Below are positions 1,818 through 45,964 of a stretch of 64,000 nucleotides of DNA, one piece after another. Source of the DNA: a virus. Each line of letters starts with the position of its first letter. Positions within the stretch are counted from its first letter, which is position 1. Both the position numbers and the translations under genes were made by a program. The DNA is taken from positions 1 to 64,000 of IMG/VR virus record IMGVR_UViG_3300023179_000037; one strand, 5' to 3'. A model generated the notes under the pieces. The model was not told the origin of the DNA, searched no databases, and saw only the letters and a program-made list of their open reading frames with translations.

Positions 1818-2990
1818 ATGCGTAAATTGTGGTATTGCGGACTAGAGCCGTATGAGGGCAGATATACTTTACAGCTTCAGCAATGGAGCGAAGCTGTATT
1901 TAAGCGCAGGGGTATTGATTATGAGGTAATTCATGGTGAACTACTAGATACATCTAAATCTATTGTGACGGGTCAAGTACTTGATGCACATGGCCGTAGT
2001 TATTATTCTTTGACTCAAATGGCCAAACTTGTAGCAAAGATGAAGGCGGGTGAAGTAACTTGGGAAGATACTATTTTCTTTGAGGATATGTTTACCCCCG
2101 GTATGGAAGCTTTGCCTTATATTATGGATCAGACAACAACAGATTATAGACCTCAGGTGTGGGTAAGATGTTTAGCGCAGACAATAGATCCAGATGATTT
2201 TCTTCATGTATGGGATATGCAAGATTGGATGCGACATTATGAGCATATGATAAATCATTTTGTGACTGGTGTATTAGCATCTAATGAAGAAATGGTGGCA
2301 CATATGAAAATTGCCGGTTGGAATGTTCCAACCTACAATATTTCTGGTCTTGCATTTAGTAAAGAAGAAGTGCAATCTCGAGTGCCTTATAGAAAAAAGT
2401 TTTACGATAGACAGAGGCGAGTGTGTTTTGCTGCTAGATTTGACCAAGAAAAACAACCTGGATTTTATATGGACATGGTTGAAAAAATAAAACCATATCA
2501 TGACATTGAATTTTGTGTTTTGTCGGGCGGACCACTACGCAGTAATGATCCCAATTATTTGGAGAGAGCACGTGAATTAGAAAATAAAGGTATTCTAAAG
2601 ATATATGAAAATTTATCTAAAAATGAATACTATAATATTTTGGCAGATTCAAGAATTTTATTTAACTGCGCCCTACAGGATTGGGTTTCTAATACTGCTT
2701 CAGAAGCTGACGCCCTTGGAACAAATTGCTTATATCCTGCTTATCGATCTTTTCCCGAGACATTTGCCAATGATGAAGAATGTTTGTATGTGCCTTGGTC
2801 AACAAAGGATGCTGAAACTAAGCTATTGTGGTTAATGAATAATCCGAGAACTGGACTAGGCAGATTATCAAATTGGACAAATGAAACTATAGATCGTTGT
2901 TTAGATATCATGGAGGATGGTTTTGCTAGTGAAAAATGGTATAGGGGAAACAATAGGTATAGAAATTATGTCTCAGAATCTAAATACTAA
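1818..2990 (+). CDS. GT-B fold glycosyltransferase
   Basis: FAARFDQEKQP and ALQDWVSNTASEADALG (GT4-like donor-binding region), YPAYRSFPE. Confidence 0.75.
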   Translation: MRKLWYCGLEPYEGRYTLQLQQWSEAVFKRRGIDYEVIHGELLDTSKSIVTGQVLDAHGRSYYSLTQMAKLVAKMKAGEVTWEDTIFFEDMFTPGMEALPYIMDQTTTDYRPQVWVRCLAQTIDPDDFLHVWDMQDWMRHYEHMINHFVTGVLASNEEMVAHMKIAGWNVPTYNISGLAFSKEEVQSRVPYRKKFYDRQRRVCFAARFDQEKQPGFYMDMVEKIKPYHDIEFCVLSGGPLRSNDPNYLERARELENKGILKIYENLSKNEYYNILADSRILFNCALQDWVSNTASEADALGTNCLYPAYRSFPETFANDEECLYVPWSTKDAETKLLWLMNNPRTGLGRLSNWTNETIDRCLDIMEDGFASEKWYRGNNRYRNYVSESKY

Positions 2991-3984
2991 AAATATTCTA
3001 GTTACTGGTGCTGCTGGTTATATTGGTGGCATTACTTGTATCGAGTTAAAAAGAAGAGGATACAATGTCTTTGGAGTGGATAGAAGATTTTTTGATCATT
3101 TAAAAGATTACTATGATGATTTTTATCATGGAGATTTTACTGACAATGAATCTTTTTTACTTATAAAGAAAGTAAATCCTGTTGCAATAATTCATTGTGC
3201 AGGAACAAGTTTAGTTGCTCCTAGTTTTATCTCTCCGGGGGATTATTTTAATAATAACGTAGCTAAAACAAATAAATTATTAAACTTTATTAAAGATGAA
3301 ATTCCTTCTACTAAATTTATTTTTAGTAGCAGTGCTGCTGTGTATGGTAATTGGTCTACATATCCTTATCGAGAATATAGTGACACAATACCTGTGTCAC
3401 CTTACGGTGAATCTAAGCTAATGGCGGAAAAGATATTATCATGGTATCATCAAGTATATAATTTAAATTATGTATCCTTAAGATATTTTAATGCATGCGG
3501 TGCAGATTATGATGCTGCTCATGGGCAAGAACCTTATGCTACACATATATTTGCTAAATTATTTGAAGCAGCATTAAATGATACAGTATTTACATTAAAT
3601 GGCGCAACTTATCGAACTAATGATAATACTTGTGTACGAGATTATGTTCATGTTTCAGATATAGCGGATGCTCATATTAAAAGTATTGAAAATAAAATCA
3701 CAGGCATATATAATTTAGCTACCTTAAGAGGCACATCAAATCTCGAATGTTTAGATTATGTAGAAAAGCTTTTAGATAAGAAAATTGTGGTAAATGTAGC
3801 TCCAGCAAGAAAAGGCGACCCTGCTATTCTTGTAGCTGATCCAACTAAGTTCCAAGTAGTAACAGGATGGAGAGCATGGCGAACTATTCCATTAGTGGTA
3901 AGCCATTTACAGAAATGGTATGAATCTTCTATATTTAAAAACTATAGTAATAAGCGGTCTCAGGACGCTCATCCCGCTTTATAA
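2968..3984 (+). CDS. galE: UDP-glucose 4-epimerase (GalE-like SDR)
   Basis: VTGAAGYIG, SSSAAVYG, YGESK, LRYFNACGA, CVRDYVHV; ATG at 2968 preferred. Confidence 0.85.
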   Translation: MSQNLNTKNILVTGAAGYIGGITCIELKRRGYNVFGVDRRFFDHLKDYYDDFYHGDFTDNESFLLIKKVNPVAIIHCAGTSLVAPSFISPGDYFNNNVAKTNKLLNFIKDEIPSTKFIFSSSAAVYGNWSTYPYREYSDTIPVSPYGESKLMAEKILSWYHQVYNLNYVSLRYFNACGADYDAAHGQEPYATHIFAKLFEAALNDTVFTLNGATYRTNDNTCVRDYVHVSDIADAHIKSIENKITGIYNLATLRGTSNLECLDYVEKLLDKKIVVNVAPARKGDPAILVADPTKFQVVTGWRAWRTIPLVVSHLQKWYESSIFKNYSNKRSQDAHPAL

Positions 3985-3996
3985 ATTCTGCGTGTC
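3952..3996 (+). promoter_or_regulatory. preQ1-I-like riboswitch aptamer (H-type pseudoknot)
   Basis: P1 AAGCGG/CCGCTT, loop ending CATC, A-rich tail, loop CAG pairing with tail CTG; directly upstream of queD. Confidence 0.55.
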
Positions 3997-4022
3997 ATCA
4001 AACTTACTCAAGGAGGCAAGAG

Positions 4023-4094
4023 ATGGCTTATACGTATACAGTATATCATAATAAATTTGTTAGTACGACGGAACATCATGATGTTTTATGTTAA
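4023..4094 (+). CDS. 23-aa leader ORF upstream of queD (MAYTYTVYHNKFVSTTEHHDVLC)
   Basis: Strong SD AGGAGG; in frame with queD; its stop overlaps the queD SD. Confidence 0.45.
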   Translation: MAYTYTVYHNKFVSTTEHHDVLC

Positions 4095-4103
4095 GGATTA
4101 ATT

Positions 4104-4613
4104 ATGACATTCCAACCAATAGTATACAAATTTACAAGTACAAAAGAATATGTTGATGAATTTCCATGTGCCTACAAACAATGGAAAGCTGACACTCACT
4201 GTAACAGAAATCACGGTTATAGCTTTTCAATGAAGTTTTATTTTGGGGCTAACGAATTAGATAAGCGGGGCTGGGTTTGTGATTACGGCGGTCTTAAAGA
4301 ATTAAAGCAAATTCTTAAAGATCAATTTGACCACCGCACTTTAATTGCTCAGGATGATCCGGATCTTGAAAAGTTTAAACAACTTGAGCAGGACGGCATC
4401 TTACAACTTACCATACTACCGGGCATGGGCTGCGAAATGATTGCCGATATGCTTTACAAATATGTAAATGGAGTTTATATTCCGCAGTACCTCGGAGAAG
4501 GCGAAGCCAAACGAATTTGGTGCTACAGAGTTGAAGTCCGAGAAACCCAGTCTAATATGGCTTTTAGAGAAGGCCACCGAGAGTGGAACGAGGACTTATT
4601 TGTAGATTTTTAG
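4104..4613 (+). CDS. queD: 6-carboxy-5,6,7,8-tetrahydropterin synthase (QueD-like)
   Basis: HCNRNHGY (CxxxHGx), DYGGLK, FDH, GCEMIA, VRET motifs. Confidence 0.85.
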   Translation: MTFQPIVYKFTSTKEYVDEFPCAYKQWKADTHCNRNHGYSFSMKFYFGANELDKRGWVCDYGGLKELKQILKDQFDHRTLIAQDDPDLEKFKQLEQDGILQLTILPGMGCEMIADMLYKYVNGVYIPQYLGEGEAKRIWCYRVEVRETQSNMAFREGHREWNEDLFVDF

Positions 4614-4692
4614 TAAATCGACATAAATAAACACAAAACAATATGATTTTTAGAGAAAACCGCAGTCACCGGCATAAGGATTTATTCCAGTT

Positions 4693-5739
4693 ATGAAAAT
4701 TTGTTTACTCGGTGATACACATTTTGGAGTTAGATCCGATTCTAAAATTTTTCATAAATATTTTCTATATTTCTATGAAAAAATATTTTTTCCTTATCTA
4801 GAGGAAAATAACATCAATACAATTATTCAATTAGGCGATTTATTTGATAGAAGAAAGTATATAAATTTTCTTACACTATCTGAGTCTAAAAAATATTTCT
4901 TTGATATAATTAAAAATAAAAATATAAAAACAATTGCTTTATTGGGCAATCATGATATTTTCTGGAAGGAAAGTTTATCAGTAAATTCTCCTGATTTATT
5001 ACTTGAAAATTATGAGACATTGTCCATTATTAAATCTCCAAAAACTTTAGAATTAAATATACCCATAGATATTATACCCTGGATATGTAAAGAAAATGAG
5101 GAGGAAGTTTTAGATTTCATAAAAAATTCCAATTCAAAAATTTGTATGGGACATTTTGAACTATCTGGATTTGAAATGATGCGAGGAGTTCCTAATCATG
5201 ATGGTATAGACAGTAAATTTTTAAATAAGTATGAGCGTGTTTATAGTGGTCATTTTCATACAGCATCTTCTAAAGGAAATATCACATATTTGGGTACTCC
5301 TTATGAATTGACGTGGTCAGATTATAATGACCCTAAAGGATTTTATATTCTTGATACTGATACATTGAAACTAGAATTTATTAAAAATCCTATTACAATG
5401 TTTGAAAAAATATATTACGATGACATTAAAAACGATATAATAGATACAAACAAATACGAAGATAAATTTATTAAACTGATTGTAGTAAATAAAACTGATT
5501 TTAAAAAGTTTGATTCTTTTGTTGATAATCTTTATAAAATTAATCCGAACGAAATAAAAATATTAGAAGATCTTTCTGAATTCGAATCTTCAGATATGGA
5601 GGAAAATCTAAATTTAGAAGATACGATGACACTCTTATCCGATTACGTAGATGGTATTGAAACTGATGCGAATAAAGATAGAATAAAATTATTATTGAAA
5701 GAGCTATATGTAGAAGCTCACGATTACGAGGAAACATGA
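4693..5739 (+). CDS. 47: recombination nuclease subunit gp47 (Mre11/SbcD-like)
   Basis: GDTHFG, LGDLFD, GNHD, GHFH metallophosphoesterase motifs; followed by gp46. Confidence 0.92.
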   Translation: MKICLLGDTHFGVRSDSKIFHKYFLYFYEKIFFPYLEENNINTIIQLGDLFDRRKYINFLTLSESKKYFFDIIKNKNIKTIALLGNHDIFWKESLSVNSPDLLLENYETLSIIKSPKTLELNIPIDIIPWICKENEEEVLDFIKNSNSKICMGHFELSGFEMMRGVPNHDGIDSKFLNKYERVYSGHFHTASSKGNITYLGTPYELTWSDYNDPKGFYILDTDTLKLEFIKNPITMFEKIYYDDIKNDIIDTNKYEDKFIKLIVVNKTDFKKFDSFVDNLYKINPNEIKILEDLSEFESSDMEENLNLEDTMTLLSDYVDGIETDANKDRIKLLLKELYVEAHDYEET

Positions 5740-7448
5740 TTTATTTTCAAAAGATTAAGTGGCGTAACTTTTTATCTACAGGAAATAATTTTACAGTAAT
5801 AGAATTAGACAGAAATCCCTCGACTTTAATTATAGGCGAAAATGGTGCCGGGAAGAGCACCATTCTTGATGCTATTTGTTATGGATTATTTGGAAAAGCA
5901 TTTAGAAATATAAACAAACCGCAATTAGTTAATTCAATAAATCAAAAGAATTGTTCTGTAGAATTAGAATTTCGTATAGGCAAAAAAGAATATAGAATAA
6001 TACGAAGTCAGCGTCCAGGTGTATTTGAGATATATCAAGATGGGAATTTACTAAATCAAGATGCTGCATTAAAGGATTATCAAAAATATCTTGAAGATAA
6101 AATATTAAAATTAAATTTTAAATCGTTTACTCAAATTGTAATATTAGGTTCAGCTTCTTTTACTCCTTTTATGCAATTAGCACAGGGCACTAGAAGAGAG
6201 GTGATTGAGGATATTCTTGATATACAAATTTTTAGTGTTATGAATAATATTCTCAAATTGAGACAAAGTGAAATAAGAGATATTTTACGAGAAAAAGAAA
6301 ACAAAATAGATATAGGTAAACAAAAAGTAAAGTTGCAACAGAATTATATTAAACAACTTGAAGATGATCAAAAGAAAAGAAATGATGACCTCCAGGCAAA
6401 AATCGAAATCGCTAGTGAAAATATCAAGAATTTTGAATTGCAGAGTAGAAGCTTTACAGAAGAATACGATACACTCTCAAACTCAGTTAAAGATGATATG
6501 GAGATCGCTACCAGAAAAGTTGAAGTGGCAAATCTTTATAAATCATTACAAGCACGAATTAAGAAAGTTGAAAGTGATATCATATTCTACGAAGAACATG
6601 ACTCATGCCCGACTTGTTCTCAAATTATATCTACAGAATTTAAAACAACAACAATCGGTAAACATACACACAAAAAAGAAGAAATCGGTGATGCAATTGA
6701 TACGCTCTACAACAAAATGCAAGCAATTGAAGCTAGAGCTAATGAAATCATTGAAATTAAACAACAAATTGTTGCCGTACAAACTAATATCACGGAAATA
6801 AATGCAAAAATTATTGCTCAACAAAATTATATAAAGGCGCTACAAGCAGATACAAAAGAAGAAAGTAATATAGAAGATAGTTTAGTCAATGCAAAGCTTA
6901 CTCTTAAGCATCTTGCCAAAGAAGTTATAACCGAGTCAGAAAGTAAAAGTAAATTAAAAGAAGATTCATATTATTTTGATGCTGTATCTACCTTACTAAA
7001 AGATACCGGAATAAAGACTAGAATTATAAAACAGTATCTTCCTGTCATAAATAAATTAGTAAATAAGTATTTGACTGCGATGGATTTTTTTGTATCATTT
7101 GAATTAGACGAAGCTTTTAACGAAGTAATAAAATCTAGACATAGAGACGATTTTAGCTACGCATCCTTTAGTGAGGGCGAAAAACAAAGAATAGATTTAG
7201 CATTGTTATTTACTTGGAGAACTATCGCTAAGATGAAAAATAGTGTTTCTACTAATTTATTGTTATTAGATGAAGTATTTGATTCTAGCTTAGATATTAA
7301 TGGAACAGATTTTGTTATGAATTTACTTAATACCATAGGTGAGGATGTAAATGTATTTGTAATATCTCATAAAGGAGATCAATTATTAGATAAATTTAGT
7401 AATGTTATAAAGTTTGAAAAATATCAAAATTTTTCTAGGATAGTATAA
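5736..7448 (+). CDS. 46: recombination ATPase subunit gp46 (Rad50/SbcC-like)
   Basis: GENGAGKS, CPTC zinc hook, FSEGEK signature, LLLLDE. Confidence 0.95.
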   Translation: MIYFQKIKWRNFLSTGNNFTVIELDRNPSTLIIGENGAGKSTILDAICYGLFGKAFRNINKPQLVNSINQKNCSVELEFRIGKKEYRIIRSQRPGVFEIYQDGNLLNQDAALKDYQKYLEDKILKLNFKSFTQIVILGSASFTPFMQLAQGTRREVIEDILDIQIFSVMNNILKLRQSEIRDILREKENKIDIGKQKVKLQQNYIKQLEDDQKKRNDDLQAKIEIASENIKNFELQSRSFTEEYDTLSNSVKDDMEIATRKVEVANLYKSLQARIKKVESDIIFYEEHDSCPTCSQIISTEFKTTTIGKHTHKKEEIGDAIDTLYNKMQAIEARANEIIEIKQQIVAVQTNITEINAKIIAQQNYIKALQADTKEESNIEDSLVNAKLTLKHLAKEVITESESKSKLKEDSYYFDAVSTLLKDTGIKTRIIKQYLPVINKLVNKYLTAMDFFVSFELDEAFNEVIKSRHRDDFSYASFSEGEKQRIDLALLFTWRTIAKMKNSVSTNLLLLDEVFDSSLDINGTDFVMNLLNTIGEDVNVFVISHKGDQLLDKFSNVIKFEKYQNFSRIV

Positions 7449-8032
7449 TGATTATTATTCGCAAAGATCAATTAAATTTAGTAGAACCTAATAATACTAT
7501 TTTAAACTCTTCCCCTGCTTTATATGATTTTGAAAAAAATAAAAGTAGCGCTTTAGCTATATCTAATGTTTTATTTGAAAGAATGAAGGAATTGGGGGGT
7601 ATCGGACTTAGTGCAAACCAAGTAGGCATAAATTTGAAAATATTTGTAATGGGAACCGATCATAATAAATTGGCAGTTTTTAATCCTGAAATCATTGAAT
7701 ATTTTGGTGAGGAAATTTCTTTTAAAGAAGGATGTTTGAGTTTTCCTGGGTTATTCATTTTCGTAAAAAGACCTGCAGGTATACGAGTTAAATTTCAAGA
7801 TATAGAGGGAAATTTAAAGGAGGGGGAATTTACTGGTTTAACTGCCAGAATTTTTCAACATGAGTATGATCATATGCAGGGAAAAGATTTTACAGAAAGA
7901 GTTTCAAAAATCAAGTTAGATCTTGCAAAAAAGAAATATCTTAATTTAAAAAAGAAAATAATTAAAAAACACGCAGTACAAACTATGATTGGTGCTTTAA
8001 ATGAATCAGAAAATTTAAATTTGCAAAAATAA
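7448..8032 (+). CDS. def: peptide deformylase
   Basis: GIGLSANQVG, EGCLS, QHEYDH. Confidence 0.93.
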   Translation: MIIIRKDQLNLVEPNNTILNSSPALYDFEKNKSSALAISNVLFERMKELGGIGLSANQVGINLKIFVMGTDHNKLAVFNPEIIEYFGEEISFKEGCLSFPGLFIFVKRPAGIRVKFQDIEGNLKEGEFTGLTARIFQHEYDHMQGKDFTERVSKIKLDLAKKKYLNLKKKIIKKHAVQTMIGALNESENLNLQK

Positions 8033-10275: not shown

Positions 10276-11439
10276 ATGAAATTGACAGAAATTGAAAAAC
10301 GAGATATTGTTGCCGATCTTGCTGAAAAATTTGGTGCATCAGCATCTAGAAAAATTATTATAAAGCACTTTAAAGATTCATCTCTCCCGGTTCCTAATTG
10401 GCTAATTAATGGTGACGAGTATCGTTTAGAACGAGGCATAATAAATTTATCCTTGCCCTTAGATCAAAATAAAATAATAATGAAAAAAGAAGAAACACAT
10501 ATGCCCGCATTACAAGCACAAGTAGTCCAAATTAAACAAAAGAAATTAGATCAACAAATAGATAATCTAGTTCCTATTAAAGATTATACTTATGTTCCTT
10601 TTGGATTTTTTAAAGATTTAGAAGAAATTATTAAGTCTGAATCATTTTATCCATTGTTTATTACTGGTTTATCTGGTAATGGTAAAACAACTATGGTTGA
10701 GCAAGTTTGTGCTAAGTTGAATAGAGAGTGTATTCGAGTAAATATTAGTATTGAAACGGATGAGGATGACCTTGTAGGTGGAAATACTTTAGTAGATGGA
10801 AATGTTGTCTTTAGAGAGGGTCCTGTAATTACTGCTATGCGTAGAGGAGCTATTCTACTTATTGATGAGATAGATAGAGGTAGCAATAAACTTATGTGTA
10901 TTCAAGGTATCTTGGAGGGCAAGCCTTTTTTTATTAAGAAAACCGGCGAAGTAGTACATCCAACTAATGGTTTTAATATCGTAGCAACTGCTAATACTAA
11001 AGGTAAAGGCACTGATGACGGTAAGTATATTGCTGCTCAAATTTTGGATGAAGCTTTTCTAGAACGTTTTCCAATCACTATTGAACAGGAATATCCTACT
11101 TTAGTAACCGAGAGAAAGATTATTCATAATAATATGAAACTGCTAGGGTGCACTGATGATGAGTTTGCGGATAAGTTGGTAGAATGGGCAGAAATTATTC
11201 GAAAAACTTATTTGGAAGGCGCAATTGATGAATTAATTTCTACACGACGTCTAGTACATATTGTTAAAGCATATTCAGTATTTAAAGATAAACTGAAAGC
11301 GATTAATCTGTGTATAAATCGCTTTGATTCTGATACTAAAAATGCTTTTATTGATTTGTATAATAAAATGGATTTGCCAAAACAACAGGAAACTGTACCA
11401 AGTCAGCCTTTATCTAACAATGATGAATTGCCTTTATAG
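10276..11439 (+). CDS. cobS: CobS/MoxR-like AAA+ ATPase
   Basis: GLSGNGKT, LLIDEID, ATANTKG, AFLERF, STRRL. Confidence 0.85.
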   Translation: MKLTEIEKRDIVADLAEKFGASASRKIIIKHFKDSSLPVPNWLINGDEYRLERGIINLSLPLDQNKIIMKKEETHMPALQAQVVQIKQKKLDQQIDNLVPIKDYTYVPFGFFKDLEEIIKSESFYPLFITGLSGNGKTTMVEQVCAKLNRECIRVNISIETDEDDLVGGNTLVDGNVVFREGPVITAMRRGAILLIDEIDRGSNKLMCIQGILEGKPFFIKKTGEVVHPTNGFNIVATANTKGKGTDDGKYIAAQILDEAFLERFPITIEQEYPTLVTERKIIHNNMKLLGCTDDEFADKLVEWAEIIRKTYLEGAIDELISTRRLVHIVKAYSVFKDKLKAINLCINRFDSDTKNAFIDLYNKMDLPKQQETVPSQPLSNNDELPL

Positions 11440-31051: not shown

Positions 31052-31125
31052 TGCGGGTTGGTGAAAAGGTATCACAGAGGACTCATAATCCTCAGTCTCT
31101 AGTTCGAATCTAGAACCCGCTACCA
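31052..31125 (+). tRNA. tRNA with CAT anticodon (Met or Ile2)
   Basis: GCGGGT/ACCCGC acceptor, GAGGA-CTCATAA-TCCTC, TTCGAAT T-loop, encoded CCA. Confidence 0.9.
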
Positions 31126-45793: not shown

Positions 45794-45876
45794 GGGGATG
45801 TGGTGAAATTGGTAGACACACCTGGTTTAAGCCCAGACGTTTCGACGTGAGAGTTCGAATCTCTCCATCCCCACCA
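45794..45876 (+). tRNA. tRNA-Leu(TAA)
   Basis: GGGGATG/CATCCCC, TTTAAGC loop, long variable arm, ACCA. Confidence 0.92.
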
Positions 45877-45890
45877 ATAGGTTTCTTTGT

Positions 45891-45964
45891 GCGACCATAG
45901 CTCAGAGGTCAGCAGCGCCCGGCTCATAACCGGTGGGTCCCTGGTTCGAATCCAGGTGGTCGCA
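45891..45964 (+). tRNA. tRNA with CAT anticodon, no encoded CCA
   Basis: GCGACCA/TGGTCGC, CCGG-CTCATAA-CCGG, CCTGG-TTCGAAT-CCAGG. Confidence 0.8.

Follow-up and report, generated by a model that had tools for sequence, protein, structure and literature searches.

Among described RNAs, the class I preQ1 riboswitch (preQ1-I, RF00522), a small H-type pseudoknot with a P1 of 5 bp and a short P2 built from the loop and the 3' tail, is the closest to the element reported here. Its specificity cytosine lies directly 5' of the P1 3' strand and is preceded by U in type I, for example in Carnobacterium antarcticum, or by A in types II and III, and a UU motif stands atop the P1 5' strand in types I and III (PMC11625349). 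L3 is short and A-rich and runs straight into the P2 3' strand. In all described members the P2 3' strand contains Shine-Dalgarno (SD) bases or there is competition with an antiterminator, and the ligand acts as an OFF signal (PMC11625349, Table 1). Compact pseudoknot aptamers in which a ligand-stabilised P2 gates ribosome access are also found among SAM-II/SAM-V, fluoride and guanidine-III riboswitches. In phages, 5' leader pseudoknots are known as translational operators of the adjacent gene, and the T4 gene 32 leader is the precedent for such an operator read by a protein.

We analyzed a 64,000-nt stretch of viral DNA (the window; positions 1 to 64,000 of IMG/VR record IMGVR_UViG_3300023179_000037), in which a sequence-only reading had noticed a preQ1-I-like leader upstream of a gene read as queD. 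All the letters quoted in that reading are present where it had placed them; its observation stands, and its interpretation is supported in part. The leader encodes an H-type pseudoknot of about 44 nt at positions 3953-3996, which is conserved and covarying among relatives (Table 1). Family-wide, the domain consists of a P1 of 5 bp, an L1 made of NCU and a variable stretch, a P2 of 4-7 bp, the L2 sequence UCAUC and the L3 consensus UUAYAAAYUCUGC. The window copy scores 56.9 bits with model R1, within the family range of 50-69 bits, and keeps all invariant bases, a P2 of 5 bp and a sequestering helix of 6 bp. In our view, a cis-regulatory RNA specific to phages has one of its copies at positions 3953-4027; it is probably a translational ON riboswitch, and we treat it as a candidate for this function.

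Table 1 Features of the pseudoknot element and its surroundings in the window
Feature	Position	Strand	Remarks
GalE-like NAD-dependent epimerase ORF	2917-3984	+	Upstream; last 10 codons form the 5' two-thirds of the aptamer
Sigma-70-like promoter match TTTACA-18-TATATT	3906-3935	+	In the 3' end of the epimerase ORF; ends 17 nt before P1
P1 5' strand AGCGG	3953-3957	+	Pairs with 3974-3978; paired in 100% of 113 distinct sequences
L1 UCUCAG	3958-3963	+	Begins with conserved NCU; remainder varies in length and sequence (alignment A1)
P2 5' strand GACGC	3964-3968	+	Partner of GUGUC 3992-3996; covaries in relatives
L2 UCAUC	3969-3973	+	Nearly invariant; invariant C3973 directly 5' of the P1 3' strand
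P1 3' strand CCGCU	3974-3978	+	Partner of AGCGG 3953-3957
L3 UUAUAAAUUCUGC	3979-3991	+	Invariant A3981, A3983, A3985, U3987, C3988, G3990 and C3991
P2 3' strand GUGUC (switching sequence)	3992-3996	+	Shares 3994-3996 with the 5' arm of the sequestering helix
AUG-sequestering helix, 5' arm GUCAUC	3994-3999	+	Pairs with GAUGGC 4022-4027, -5.0 kcal/mol
SD AGGAGG of the sORF	4011-4016	+	Enclosed by the sequestering helix
Sequestering helix, 3' arm GAUGGC	4022-4027	+	Holds start codon AUG 4023-4025
23-codon sORF, MAYTYTVYHNKFVSTTEHHDVLC and stop	4023-4094	+	Relic of a PTPS 5' end
Weak SD AAGGA of the intact PTPS gene	4093-4097	+	Overlaps the sORF stop UAA 4092-4094; 6 nt before AUG 4104
PTPS/QueD-like gene, 169 aa	4104-4613	+	Motif C-x3-HGY; Pfam PTPS 7.6e-19

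The single-sequence fold of positions 3940-4110 was no better than that of shuffles (z -0.34), and the same was true of the expression platform (z -1.17); the support for the structure is comparative. We found the motif before a PTPS/QueD-like gene in 180 loci of uncultured phages, and the gene link is exclusive to PTPS (gene present in 177 of 180 loci, median +72 nt). Among 80 loci fetched by PTPS homology, 60 carried the motif, and the covariance model added five, four of them new. A scan with a 22-nt pattern that was blind to the downstream gene returned at least 120 viral contigs. In about 116, the start of a PTPS gene lies 23-41 nt downstream, and in the exceptions PTPS was still next in the operon. 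The PTPS genes reached in this way include subfamilies just 30-37% identical to that of the window. Outside phages, the motif occurred on one contig of a bacterial MAG. When two versions of the leader were compared by blastn with 50,697 phage records, cultured phages yielded chance matches only, and the best cultured-phage homologue of the PTPS gene (Acidovorax phage ACP17 gp119, 49% identical) lacks the leader and has no match to model R1. The element is thus almost confined to uncultured phages, unlike preQ1-I. A possible second copy in the same genome (87541-87578, minus strand, 17.6 bits) has no P1 and lies antisense within an ORF, and was rejected.

Covariation across related leaders, the check proposed in the sequence-only reading, supports both stems. 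In P1, three of the five pairs have changed on both sides across 113 distinct sequences, with the compensatory changes coming from few of them (14/114), and RNAalifold recovered this stem unaided. For P2, the covariation score observed on alignment A1 was reached by none of 500 shuffles. Within the subtype of the window, five of seven P2 pairs have changed on both sides (0/500 shuffles match the observed score); the paired fraction of cells is 88%, and sliding the partner brings it down to 54% or less. At least 4 bp of P2 are retained by more than 20 distinct haplotypes; variants in relatives include GACAU:AUGUC, GACUU:AAGUC, GGCAU:AUGCC, GGCG:CGCC and GGUG:CAUC. In about 25 sequences P2 is weak in the main register (e.g., GCAU:AAGC), and an alternative one, AGCAU:AUGCU, would be needed. 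A CAG:CUG pairing, by which the pseudoknot had initially been thought to close, is not conserved: the loop CAG occurs in 5 of 114 unique sequences, and CUG lies inside the invariant YUCUGC. The second pairing proposed in the same reading, GACGC:GUGUC, is the true P2.

The unpaired L2 and L3 are nearly invariant and the stems variable, an invariance that is partly inflated, as 120 loci were fetched with a pattern fixing these very bases; L2 reads UCAUC in 103 of 114 sequences, and the dinucleotide directly 5' of the P1 3' strand is UC in 108, CC in four and AC in two. L1 starts with UCU, CCU or ACU in 112/114 sequences. Conservation as the C-terminus of an upstream protein was rejected, as the genes found upstream are of different kinds (FolE, HIT, epimerase, PRT-like and others), and an upstream ORF enters the aptamer in only 7 of the 180 loci. 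The element combines what is generally seen in riboswitches, i.e., a structured 5' leader, related genes downstream, covarying stems and conserved unpaired bases; its architecture and conservation suggest that it binds a ligand.

The PTPS gene product belongs to the same PTPS/T-fold family (PF01242) as QueD and its phage paralog DpdL. It matches PHROG 2389 ("QueD-like"), the closest solved structures are those of QueD/PTPS (E 3e-4), and its motif C-N-R-N-H-G-Y aligns to the CxxxHGH of these structures. The motif cysteine and the first histidine are kept, and the resulting CxxxHGY differs both from CxxxHGH of QueD and from LxxxHRHxF of DpdL (PMC10516641). With the QueD model TIGR03367 the protein reaches 40.8 bits, below the equivalog cut-off of 89.25. 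The earlier placement of the element "upstream of queD" therefore needs correction on two counts: the gene falls short of QueD in score and motif, and the relic ORF intervenes.

The sequence-only reading had also assigned the locus to a deazaguanine DNA-modification cluster with a DpdL-like gene, for which we found no support. The 112-kb record of this virus (66% complete) contains a single PTPS-family gene and no match to PF01702, PF06508, PF01227 or PF04055; DpdA/TGT, QueC, QueE, FolE and radical-SAM genes were not detectable at the Pfam level, which is no proof of absence for distant DpdA3/DpdA4, as these demand HHpred-level sensitivity (PMC10516641). The FolE, QueE-like and PRT-like proteins of relatives gave no tblastn match in the record either. 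In the window, the neighbours of the PTPS gene encode sugar-nucleotide enzymes and gp46/47-like nucleases. In relatives, FolE and QueE-like genes are associated with the element; complete relatives (jumbo phages) possess FolE, and searches of them for QueC, QueF and a Pfam-detectable TGT were negative.

The P2 3' strand also has a partner in the expression platform. The minimum free energy folds of 105 of 112 leaders have it paired to the SD/AUG region, and the platforms concerned follow at least three different designs. In the window, the extended platform fold amounts to -11.1 kcal/mol and the P2 duplex to -4.4 kcal/mol. The GACGC:GUGUC and GUCAUC:GAUGGC pairings are mutually exclusive, and the switch that the sequence-only reading had drawn between them, with a helix sequestering SD and AUG, is the conserved one. 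Since the P2 3' strand also buries the SD or AUG, formation of the knot should free translation. The feedback control that had been assumed does not follow from this wiring, which predicts ON upon knot formation; the element seems to be built to turn translation on, and not for end-product feedback. ON control of a biosynthetic enzyme is unusual, which counts against this reading. Control by an intrinsic terminator was rejected, as positions 3700-4700 contain no terminator-like site and the stems are not followed by a U-tract. The promoter match in the window (10/12) is not above chance for the region; among relatives, 20 of 112 have a match of at least 10/12 whose end lies 5-11 nt before P1, compared with 0 of 107 control windows.

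We then asked how the element relates to catalogued RNAs. The topology, the 5-bp P1, the A-rich first half of L3 and the position next to a QueD-family gene, with FolE and QueE-like genes in relatives, are what a divergent preQ1-I would show, and the UC that 108 of 114 sequences have before the P1 3' strand is the type I hallmark (PMC11625349), with a putative ligand-pairing role for C3973. Such an RNA would bind preQ1 or preQ0 and exert end-product control of 7-deazaguanine synthesis, as the sequence-only reading proposed. However, the phage L1 is long and variable and starts with UC, CC or AC followed by U, never with the UU found atop P1 in preQ1-I, and the 13-nt L3 is A-rich in its first half only and carries in its second half the invariant YUCUGC, which is absent from preQ1-I. 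The Rfam scan of the whole window at the gathering threshold gave no preQ1 match. At E<=10, no family, preQ1 included, was found on a 351-nt slice (3850-4200), on the loci of ten relatives or on a 96-nt canonical copy, for which matches down to 9 bits were listed; the matches that appeared (SNORD25, a group II fragment, PK-IAV, sR45 and IRES_Pesti) were dismissed as chance. In addition, the P2 3' strand is anti-SD/anti-AUG, so that binding would activate, whereas described preQ1-I members are OFF switches (PMC11625349), and the complete relatives yielded none of QueC, QueF and Pfam-detectable TGT, as mentioned above. Membership of preQ1-I is therefore quite improbable. SAM-II/SAM-V, fluoride and guanidine-III RNAs likewise gave no Rfam match, and they differ from the phage element in conserved bases and gene association. 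A literature search on PTPS/queD phage riboswitches returned nothing relevant.

A protein of the phage or of its host could set the same toggle, for example through autogenous repression or activation by PTPS itself. The RNA and the PTPS gene move as a module across very different genomic contexts, which autoregulation would explain equally well, and T-fold enzymes bind purine/pterin-like rings (PMC10516641, a review of DpdL/QueD). Nevertheless, the unpaired bases are nearly invariant even before PTPS subfamilies that are 30-37% identical, where a co-evolving protein partner should have changed the RNA more. Metabolite aptamers are usually small, with invariant joining regions and variable stems. 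The leader has this pattern, and its conservation resembles a small-molecule pocket, in contrast to the protein-read operators of the T4 gene 32 type. We therefore regard a protein-dependent operator as unlikely and favour a ligand-binding ON switch.

The arrangement in the window deviates from that of most relatives. The stop codon UAA of the epimerase ORF (3982-3984) falls inside L3. Homology to the epimerases of relatives ends at 3921, so the overlap with the aptamer is a non-homologous run-on tail. On a polycistronic mRNA, ribosomes terminating at 3982-3984 would unfold the aptamer, which speaks against a switch in the window. Furthermore, the buried AUG of the sequence-only reading does not start PTPS but opens the 23-codon sORF, and the PTPS gene starts only at 4104. 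In relatives, the AUG equivalent to 4023 is the PTPS start, and the sORF resembles PTPS N-termini (best local score 45; shuffles 27.9 +/- 4.2, with 0/300 reaching 45). The intact gene starts 9 nt past the relic stop, and structure hiding its start at 4104 was not significant (z -0.13). Control of PTPS would here run via translational coupling or re-initiation. As the regulated ORF is a relic, the window copy could be functionally uncoupled from PTPS.

These observations bear on a further explanation, a ligand-independent structured leader that sets mRNA stability, protects the 5' end or, in the course of infection, works as a thermometer or kinetic gate, with the window copy perhaps a decaying leftover that has no role. 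The overlap with the upstream ORF, the relic sORF between the element and PTPS and the unremarkable single-sequence folding energy are in line with it. Yet a stability hairpin needs no near-invariant unpaired bases across hundreds of phages, the window copy is intact and scores within the family range, and the relic ORF has stayed open, with its end precisely at the PTPS ribosome-binding site. This explanation thus appears rather unlikely, and we return to the ligand-responsive ON switch as the best reading.

In this switch, the aptamer-like pseudoknot would be followed by an expression platform, with the P2 3' strand alternating between the loop partner that closes the knot and the SD/start-codon partner that closes the sequestering helix. 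In the window, GUGUC 3992-3996 would pair with GACGC 3964-3968 or, as part of GUCAUC 3994-3999, with GAUGGC 4022-4027. A small planar ligand would stabilize the knot, so that the switching strand leaves the sequestering helix and the SD and AUG are freed. Candidate ligands are a pterin or a 7-deazapurine/guanine-like intermediate of the FolE-PTPS-QueE route. The AUG freed in the window would start only the 23-codon relic, from which PTPS would be reached by coupling or re-initiation. An ON direction in vivo would follow from these pairings. Whether the family represents a new, phage-only riboswitch class seems evenly balanced to us: in such a class, a preQ1-I-like knot would activate the first committed enzyme of a FolE-PTPS-QueE(-phosphoribosyltransferase) deazapurine/pterin pathway, triggered by a substrate of the pathway or a guanine-like signal, with coupling through a leader-peptide-like relic ORF in the window.

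Riboswitches encoded by phages are rare, and we know of no described preQ1-like element that follows ON logic. With hundreds of natural variants, clean covariation and a length of about 45 nt, the element is directly testable. It could lead to a new ligand and explain how the synthesis of modified purines or pterins is timed or gated by phages; to synthetic biology, it could offer an activating RNA switch of very small size. In the window itself, the aptamer sits within the ORF upstream and the enzyme gene is preceded by a relic leader ORF, a natural "uncoupled" arrangement that is relevant to the movement and decay of such modules.

The sequence-only reading had described a preQ1-I-like riboswitch ahead of queD, and each string that it quoted was found at its coordinates. 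The last 10 codons of the epimerase ORF contain the hairpin and the greater part of the tail. The buried AUG is not that of the PTPS gene: it opens a short ORF (sORF), and the PTPS gene begins farther downstream. Folded as a single sequence, the region of the element was no better than shuffled sequence (z -0.34), so the window taken alone proves nothing; the platform folded by itself did no better (z -1.17).

Coordinates of the features (window positions unless a relative's locus is named)
Feature	Position	Strand	Remark
P1 5' strand, AGCGG	3953-57		pairs with CCGCU
P1 3' strand, CCGCU	3974-78		
Hairpin loop, 16 nt	UCAUC 3969-73		UCAUC at its end
Tail, UUAUAAAUUCUGC	3979-91		
P2 3' strand, GUGUC	3992-96		
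GUCAUC	3994-99		arm of the AUG-sequestering helix
SD, AGGAGG	4011-16		
GAUGGC	4022-27		other arm; contains AUG 4023
GalE-like NAD-dependent epimerase ORF	2917-3984		355 aa; stop UAA 3982-84 within the tail
sORF	4023-4094		23 codons, from AUG 4023
PTPS-family gene	start 4104		behind weak AAGGA (4093-97) overlapping the sORF stop
Weaker promoter match	3906-35		TTTACA-18-TATATT
gp47/gp46-like SbcCD nuclease pair, peptide deformylase, CobS/CbbQ-like AAA_5 ATPase	4693-8032 and 10276-11439		
tRNA gene	31052-31122	+	Rfam tRNA, 55-60 bits
tRNA gene	45794-45873	+	Rfam tRNA, 55-60 bits
tRNA gene	45891-45964	+	Rfam tRNA, 55-60 bits
Pathway-gene examples in relatives	L119:3783-6510, L002:1867-3510, L057:4769-5620, L105:1963-2511		

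Most of 80 viral contigs collected by PTPS-protein homology carry a conserved block immediately 5' of the PTPS gene, AGCGG-NCU-variable-UCAUC-CCGCU-UUAYAAAYUCUGC, with a hairpin after it that covers the SD or the AUG. Of these 80 loci, 60 matched a loose pattern for the block, and a covariance model gave five more loci with it (four of them new), farther upstream. A 22-nt pattern scan, run blind to gene identity, matched at least 120 viral contigs and, among 185,579 prokaryote species genomes, a single contig, L201 (CAZXGO010000106.1, 8 kb, from a Chitinophagales MAG; motif at 109-162 on the minus strand), with a PTPS start behind the motif. This piece is probably a phage fragment binned into the MAG, and as a pointer to a Bacteroidota host it is at most a weak hint. 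Among the matches listed, a PTPS-family ORF begins 23-41 nt past the motif in about 116 of 120 pattern loci, including subfamilies just 30-37% identical to the window's protein; in the exceptions, one gene of the same operon (an ORF of 113, 243 or 293 aa) stands between the two. The collected motif loci had the PTPS gene at a median of +72 nt in 177 of 180 cases. The motif was absent from the 50,697 cultured-phage records searched, and no description of it was found in the literature.

In an alignment of 114 unique motif sequences (A1), P1 was paired in 100% of cells and was recovered unaided by RNAalifold; two-sided changes are seen at three of its five pairs (AGUGG/CCACU, ACCGG/CCGGU, AUCGG/CCGAU, UGCGG/CCGCA, AGAGG/CCUCU), a covariation based on 14 sequences. 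The pseudoknot proposed first joins CAG (3961-63) with CUG (3988-90). This pairing lacks conservation: only 5 of the 114 sequences have CAG in the loop, and CUG belongs to the invariant YUCUGC. The pairing GACGC:GUGUC, proposed as an alternative, is conserved, and it is the true P2: the bases directly 5' of UCAUC pair with those directly 3' of CUGC. Relatives have GACAU:AUGUC, GACUU:AAGUC, GGCAU:AUGCC, GGCG:CGCC, GGCA:UGCC, GGCU:AGCC, GGUG:CAUC, GGGC:GUCC, UGACG:CGUCA or AUGGCAU:AUGUCAU, among others, and more than 20 P2 haplotypes retain at least four contiguous pairs. Within the window's own subtype (A2, 36 sequences), P1 and a 7-bp P2 gave 88% paired cells, compared with at most 54% when the 3' partner was slid. 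Changes in both partners occur at five of the seven P2 pairs, and none of 500 shuffles attained the observed covariation score. Pairing in the main P2 register is poor for about 25 sequences, which may use one shifted downstream (AGCAU:AUGCU). The invariance of L2 and L3 is inflated in part by ascertainment through the pattern. The window copy retains all invariant bases and scored 56.9 bits with the covariance model R1 (family range, 50-69).

Two further matches were seen. One contig carries a second, divergent copy (L083:6-54, 33.7 bits) with a fully covaried P1 (ACCAG/CUGGU) and an altered L3 (CUUCGC, not YUCUGC), upstream of a 309-aa SAM-methyltransferase-like gene that itself lies just ahead of a normal switch-PTPS module; this copy could be either a variant aptamer or a duplicate in decay. 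A 17.6-bit R1 match in the window's own record, beyond the window (G000:C1:87541-87578, minus strand), lacks P1, lies antisense within a 129-aa ORF and was judged a chance match.

Nested MFE folding was applied to 112 complete leaders: in 105 the P2 3' strand was paired to the SD/start-codon region, and in 90 the SD or AUG was sequestered. This pairing spans at least three platform designs: CCUAUG...CAUAGG over the SD, and GUCRUC...GAUGGC or GCCAUUG...CAAUGGC over the AUG. The window's own sequestering helix (-5.0 kcal/mol; -11.1 for the extended platform fold) outweighs its P2 duplex (-4.4), so the closed state should dominate unless the knot is stabilised. Since P2 and the sequestering helix compete for 3994-96, which they have in common, formation of the knot would release the AUG, giving an ON switch; this wiring does not fit the end-product feedback that had been suggested. 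Of 112 contexts upstream of P1, 20 have a strong TTGACA/TATAAT match ending 5-11 nt before it, against none of 107 control windows, which locates the element at the start of transcripts made by the host polymerase.

The likeness to preQ1-I is partial. Shared are the H-type topology, the 5-bp P1, the A-rich start of L3 and the UC that adjoins the P1 3' strand on its 5' side in 108 of 114 sequences, the hallmark of preQ1-I type I (PMC11625349). However, the Rfam preQ1 models did not match the element, even at E≤10 on short queries, L1 begins with NCU instead of UU, L3 has 13 nt with the invariant YUCUGC, unlike preQ1-I, and the P2 3' strand is anti-SD and not SD. The ON logic is also opposite to all described preQ1-I mechanisms, which work by SD occlusion or transcription termination (PMC11625349). 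Because of the Rfam result, L1, L3 and the anti-SD strand, we regard the element as a switch working with a preQ1-I-type pseudoknot and not as a member of that family.

The protein encoded downstream belongs to the PTPS/T-fold family (Pfam, 7.6e-19; PHROG, 'QueD-like') and scored 40.8 bits against the QueD equivalog model, below the cut-off of 89.25. It carries the motif CxxxHGY, in place of CxxxHGH as in canonical QueD or LxxxHRHxF as in the paralog DpdL (PMC10516641). As this is the only PTPS-family gene in the record, a DpdL-like gene was not confirmed. Nor was a deazaguanine DNA-modification cluster: TGT/DpdA, QueC, FolE, radical-SAM/QueE and PRT-like genes were not detected in the IMG/VR virus record, which is 66% complete (112 kb, the window being its first 64 kb), and distant DpdA forms escape Pfam (PMC10516641). 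In many motif phages, FolE and PTPS are joined by a divergent QueE-like radical-SAM enzyme, and in some there is an XPRT/HGPRT-like phosphoribosyltransferase next to them. Within 5 kb, FolE lies upstream in 84 of 180 motif loci, the QueE-like gene downstream in 61 and a phosphoribosyltransferase-like gene in 23. FolE is present in all five of the large relatives, of which three are 98-100% complete; in the same five, TGT was absent at the Pfam level and QueC-like matches were fragments only. Complete genomes lacked both QueC and any TGT/DpdA that Pfam could detect. The pathway of these relatives may thus be a nucleotide route based on CDG and not base exchange by DpdA. From this gene context, a pterin or a 7-deazapurine/guanine-like compound would be the most plausible ligand class, and given the ON logic, a substrate or feed-forward signal seems more plausible than an end product.

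The gp46/gp47-like nucleases, peptide deformylase and CobS-like ATPase point to a T4-like aquatic myovirus as the source; their DNA-level similarity is restricted to Pelagibacter phage HTVC008M and Prochlorococcus P-SSM2-type myoviruses. In some relatives, the switch-PTPS module is in synteny with a glycosyltransferase-like gene (1818-2990; cluster 57-72% identical) and the epimerase; 52 of 180 motif loci have the epimerase cluster no more than 5 kb upstream.

The sORF product, MAYTYTVYHNKFVSTTEHHDVLC, aligns to PTPS N-termini (MA..VxYKFxSTKEYHDAFPC) with a score of 45, compared with 27.9 ± 4.2 for shuffles, none of 300 reaching it; by this alignment, the sORF is a relic of a PTPS 5' end that once came after the switch. 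The complete PTPS gene starts 9 nt past the relic's stop. In its closest relatives, the switch is likewise displaced from the gene: in L002 (90% identical PTPS) the order is FolE, switch, two small ORFs (L002:2623-2998) and PTPS; in L004, L006 and L007 the switch lies about 1.1 kb upstream, with an unrelated 323-aa ORF between switch and gene in L004 (L004:2033-3004), where a short relic (MAKFI...) comes after the controlled AUG, like that of the window. L031 and L144 have a 293-aa gene in between (L031:2118-2999; L144:4922-5803). Because of these displacements, the switch-gene junction looks like a recurrent site of insertion and recombination, a gene-insertion hotspot. If the window switch still controls PTPS, it would do so through translational coupling or re-initiation across UAA 4092-94 and AUG 4104; structure hiding the start at 4104 was not significant. 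On a polycistronic mRNA, ribosomes completing the epimerase ORF would unfold the aptamer, so the switch would act mainly on transcripts from the internal promoter-like site. We conclude that the window element is genuine and a strong candidate for a riboswitch class that is new and specific to phages, and that the window copy is intact yet sits in an unusual, partly uncoupled arrangement.
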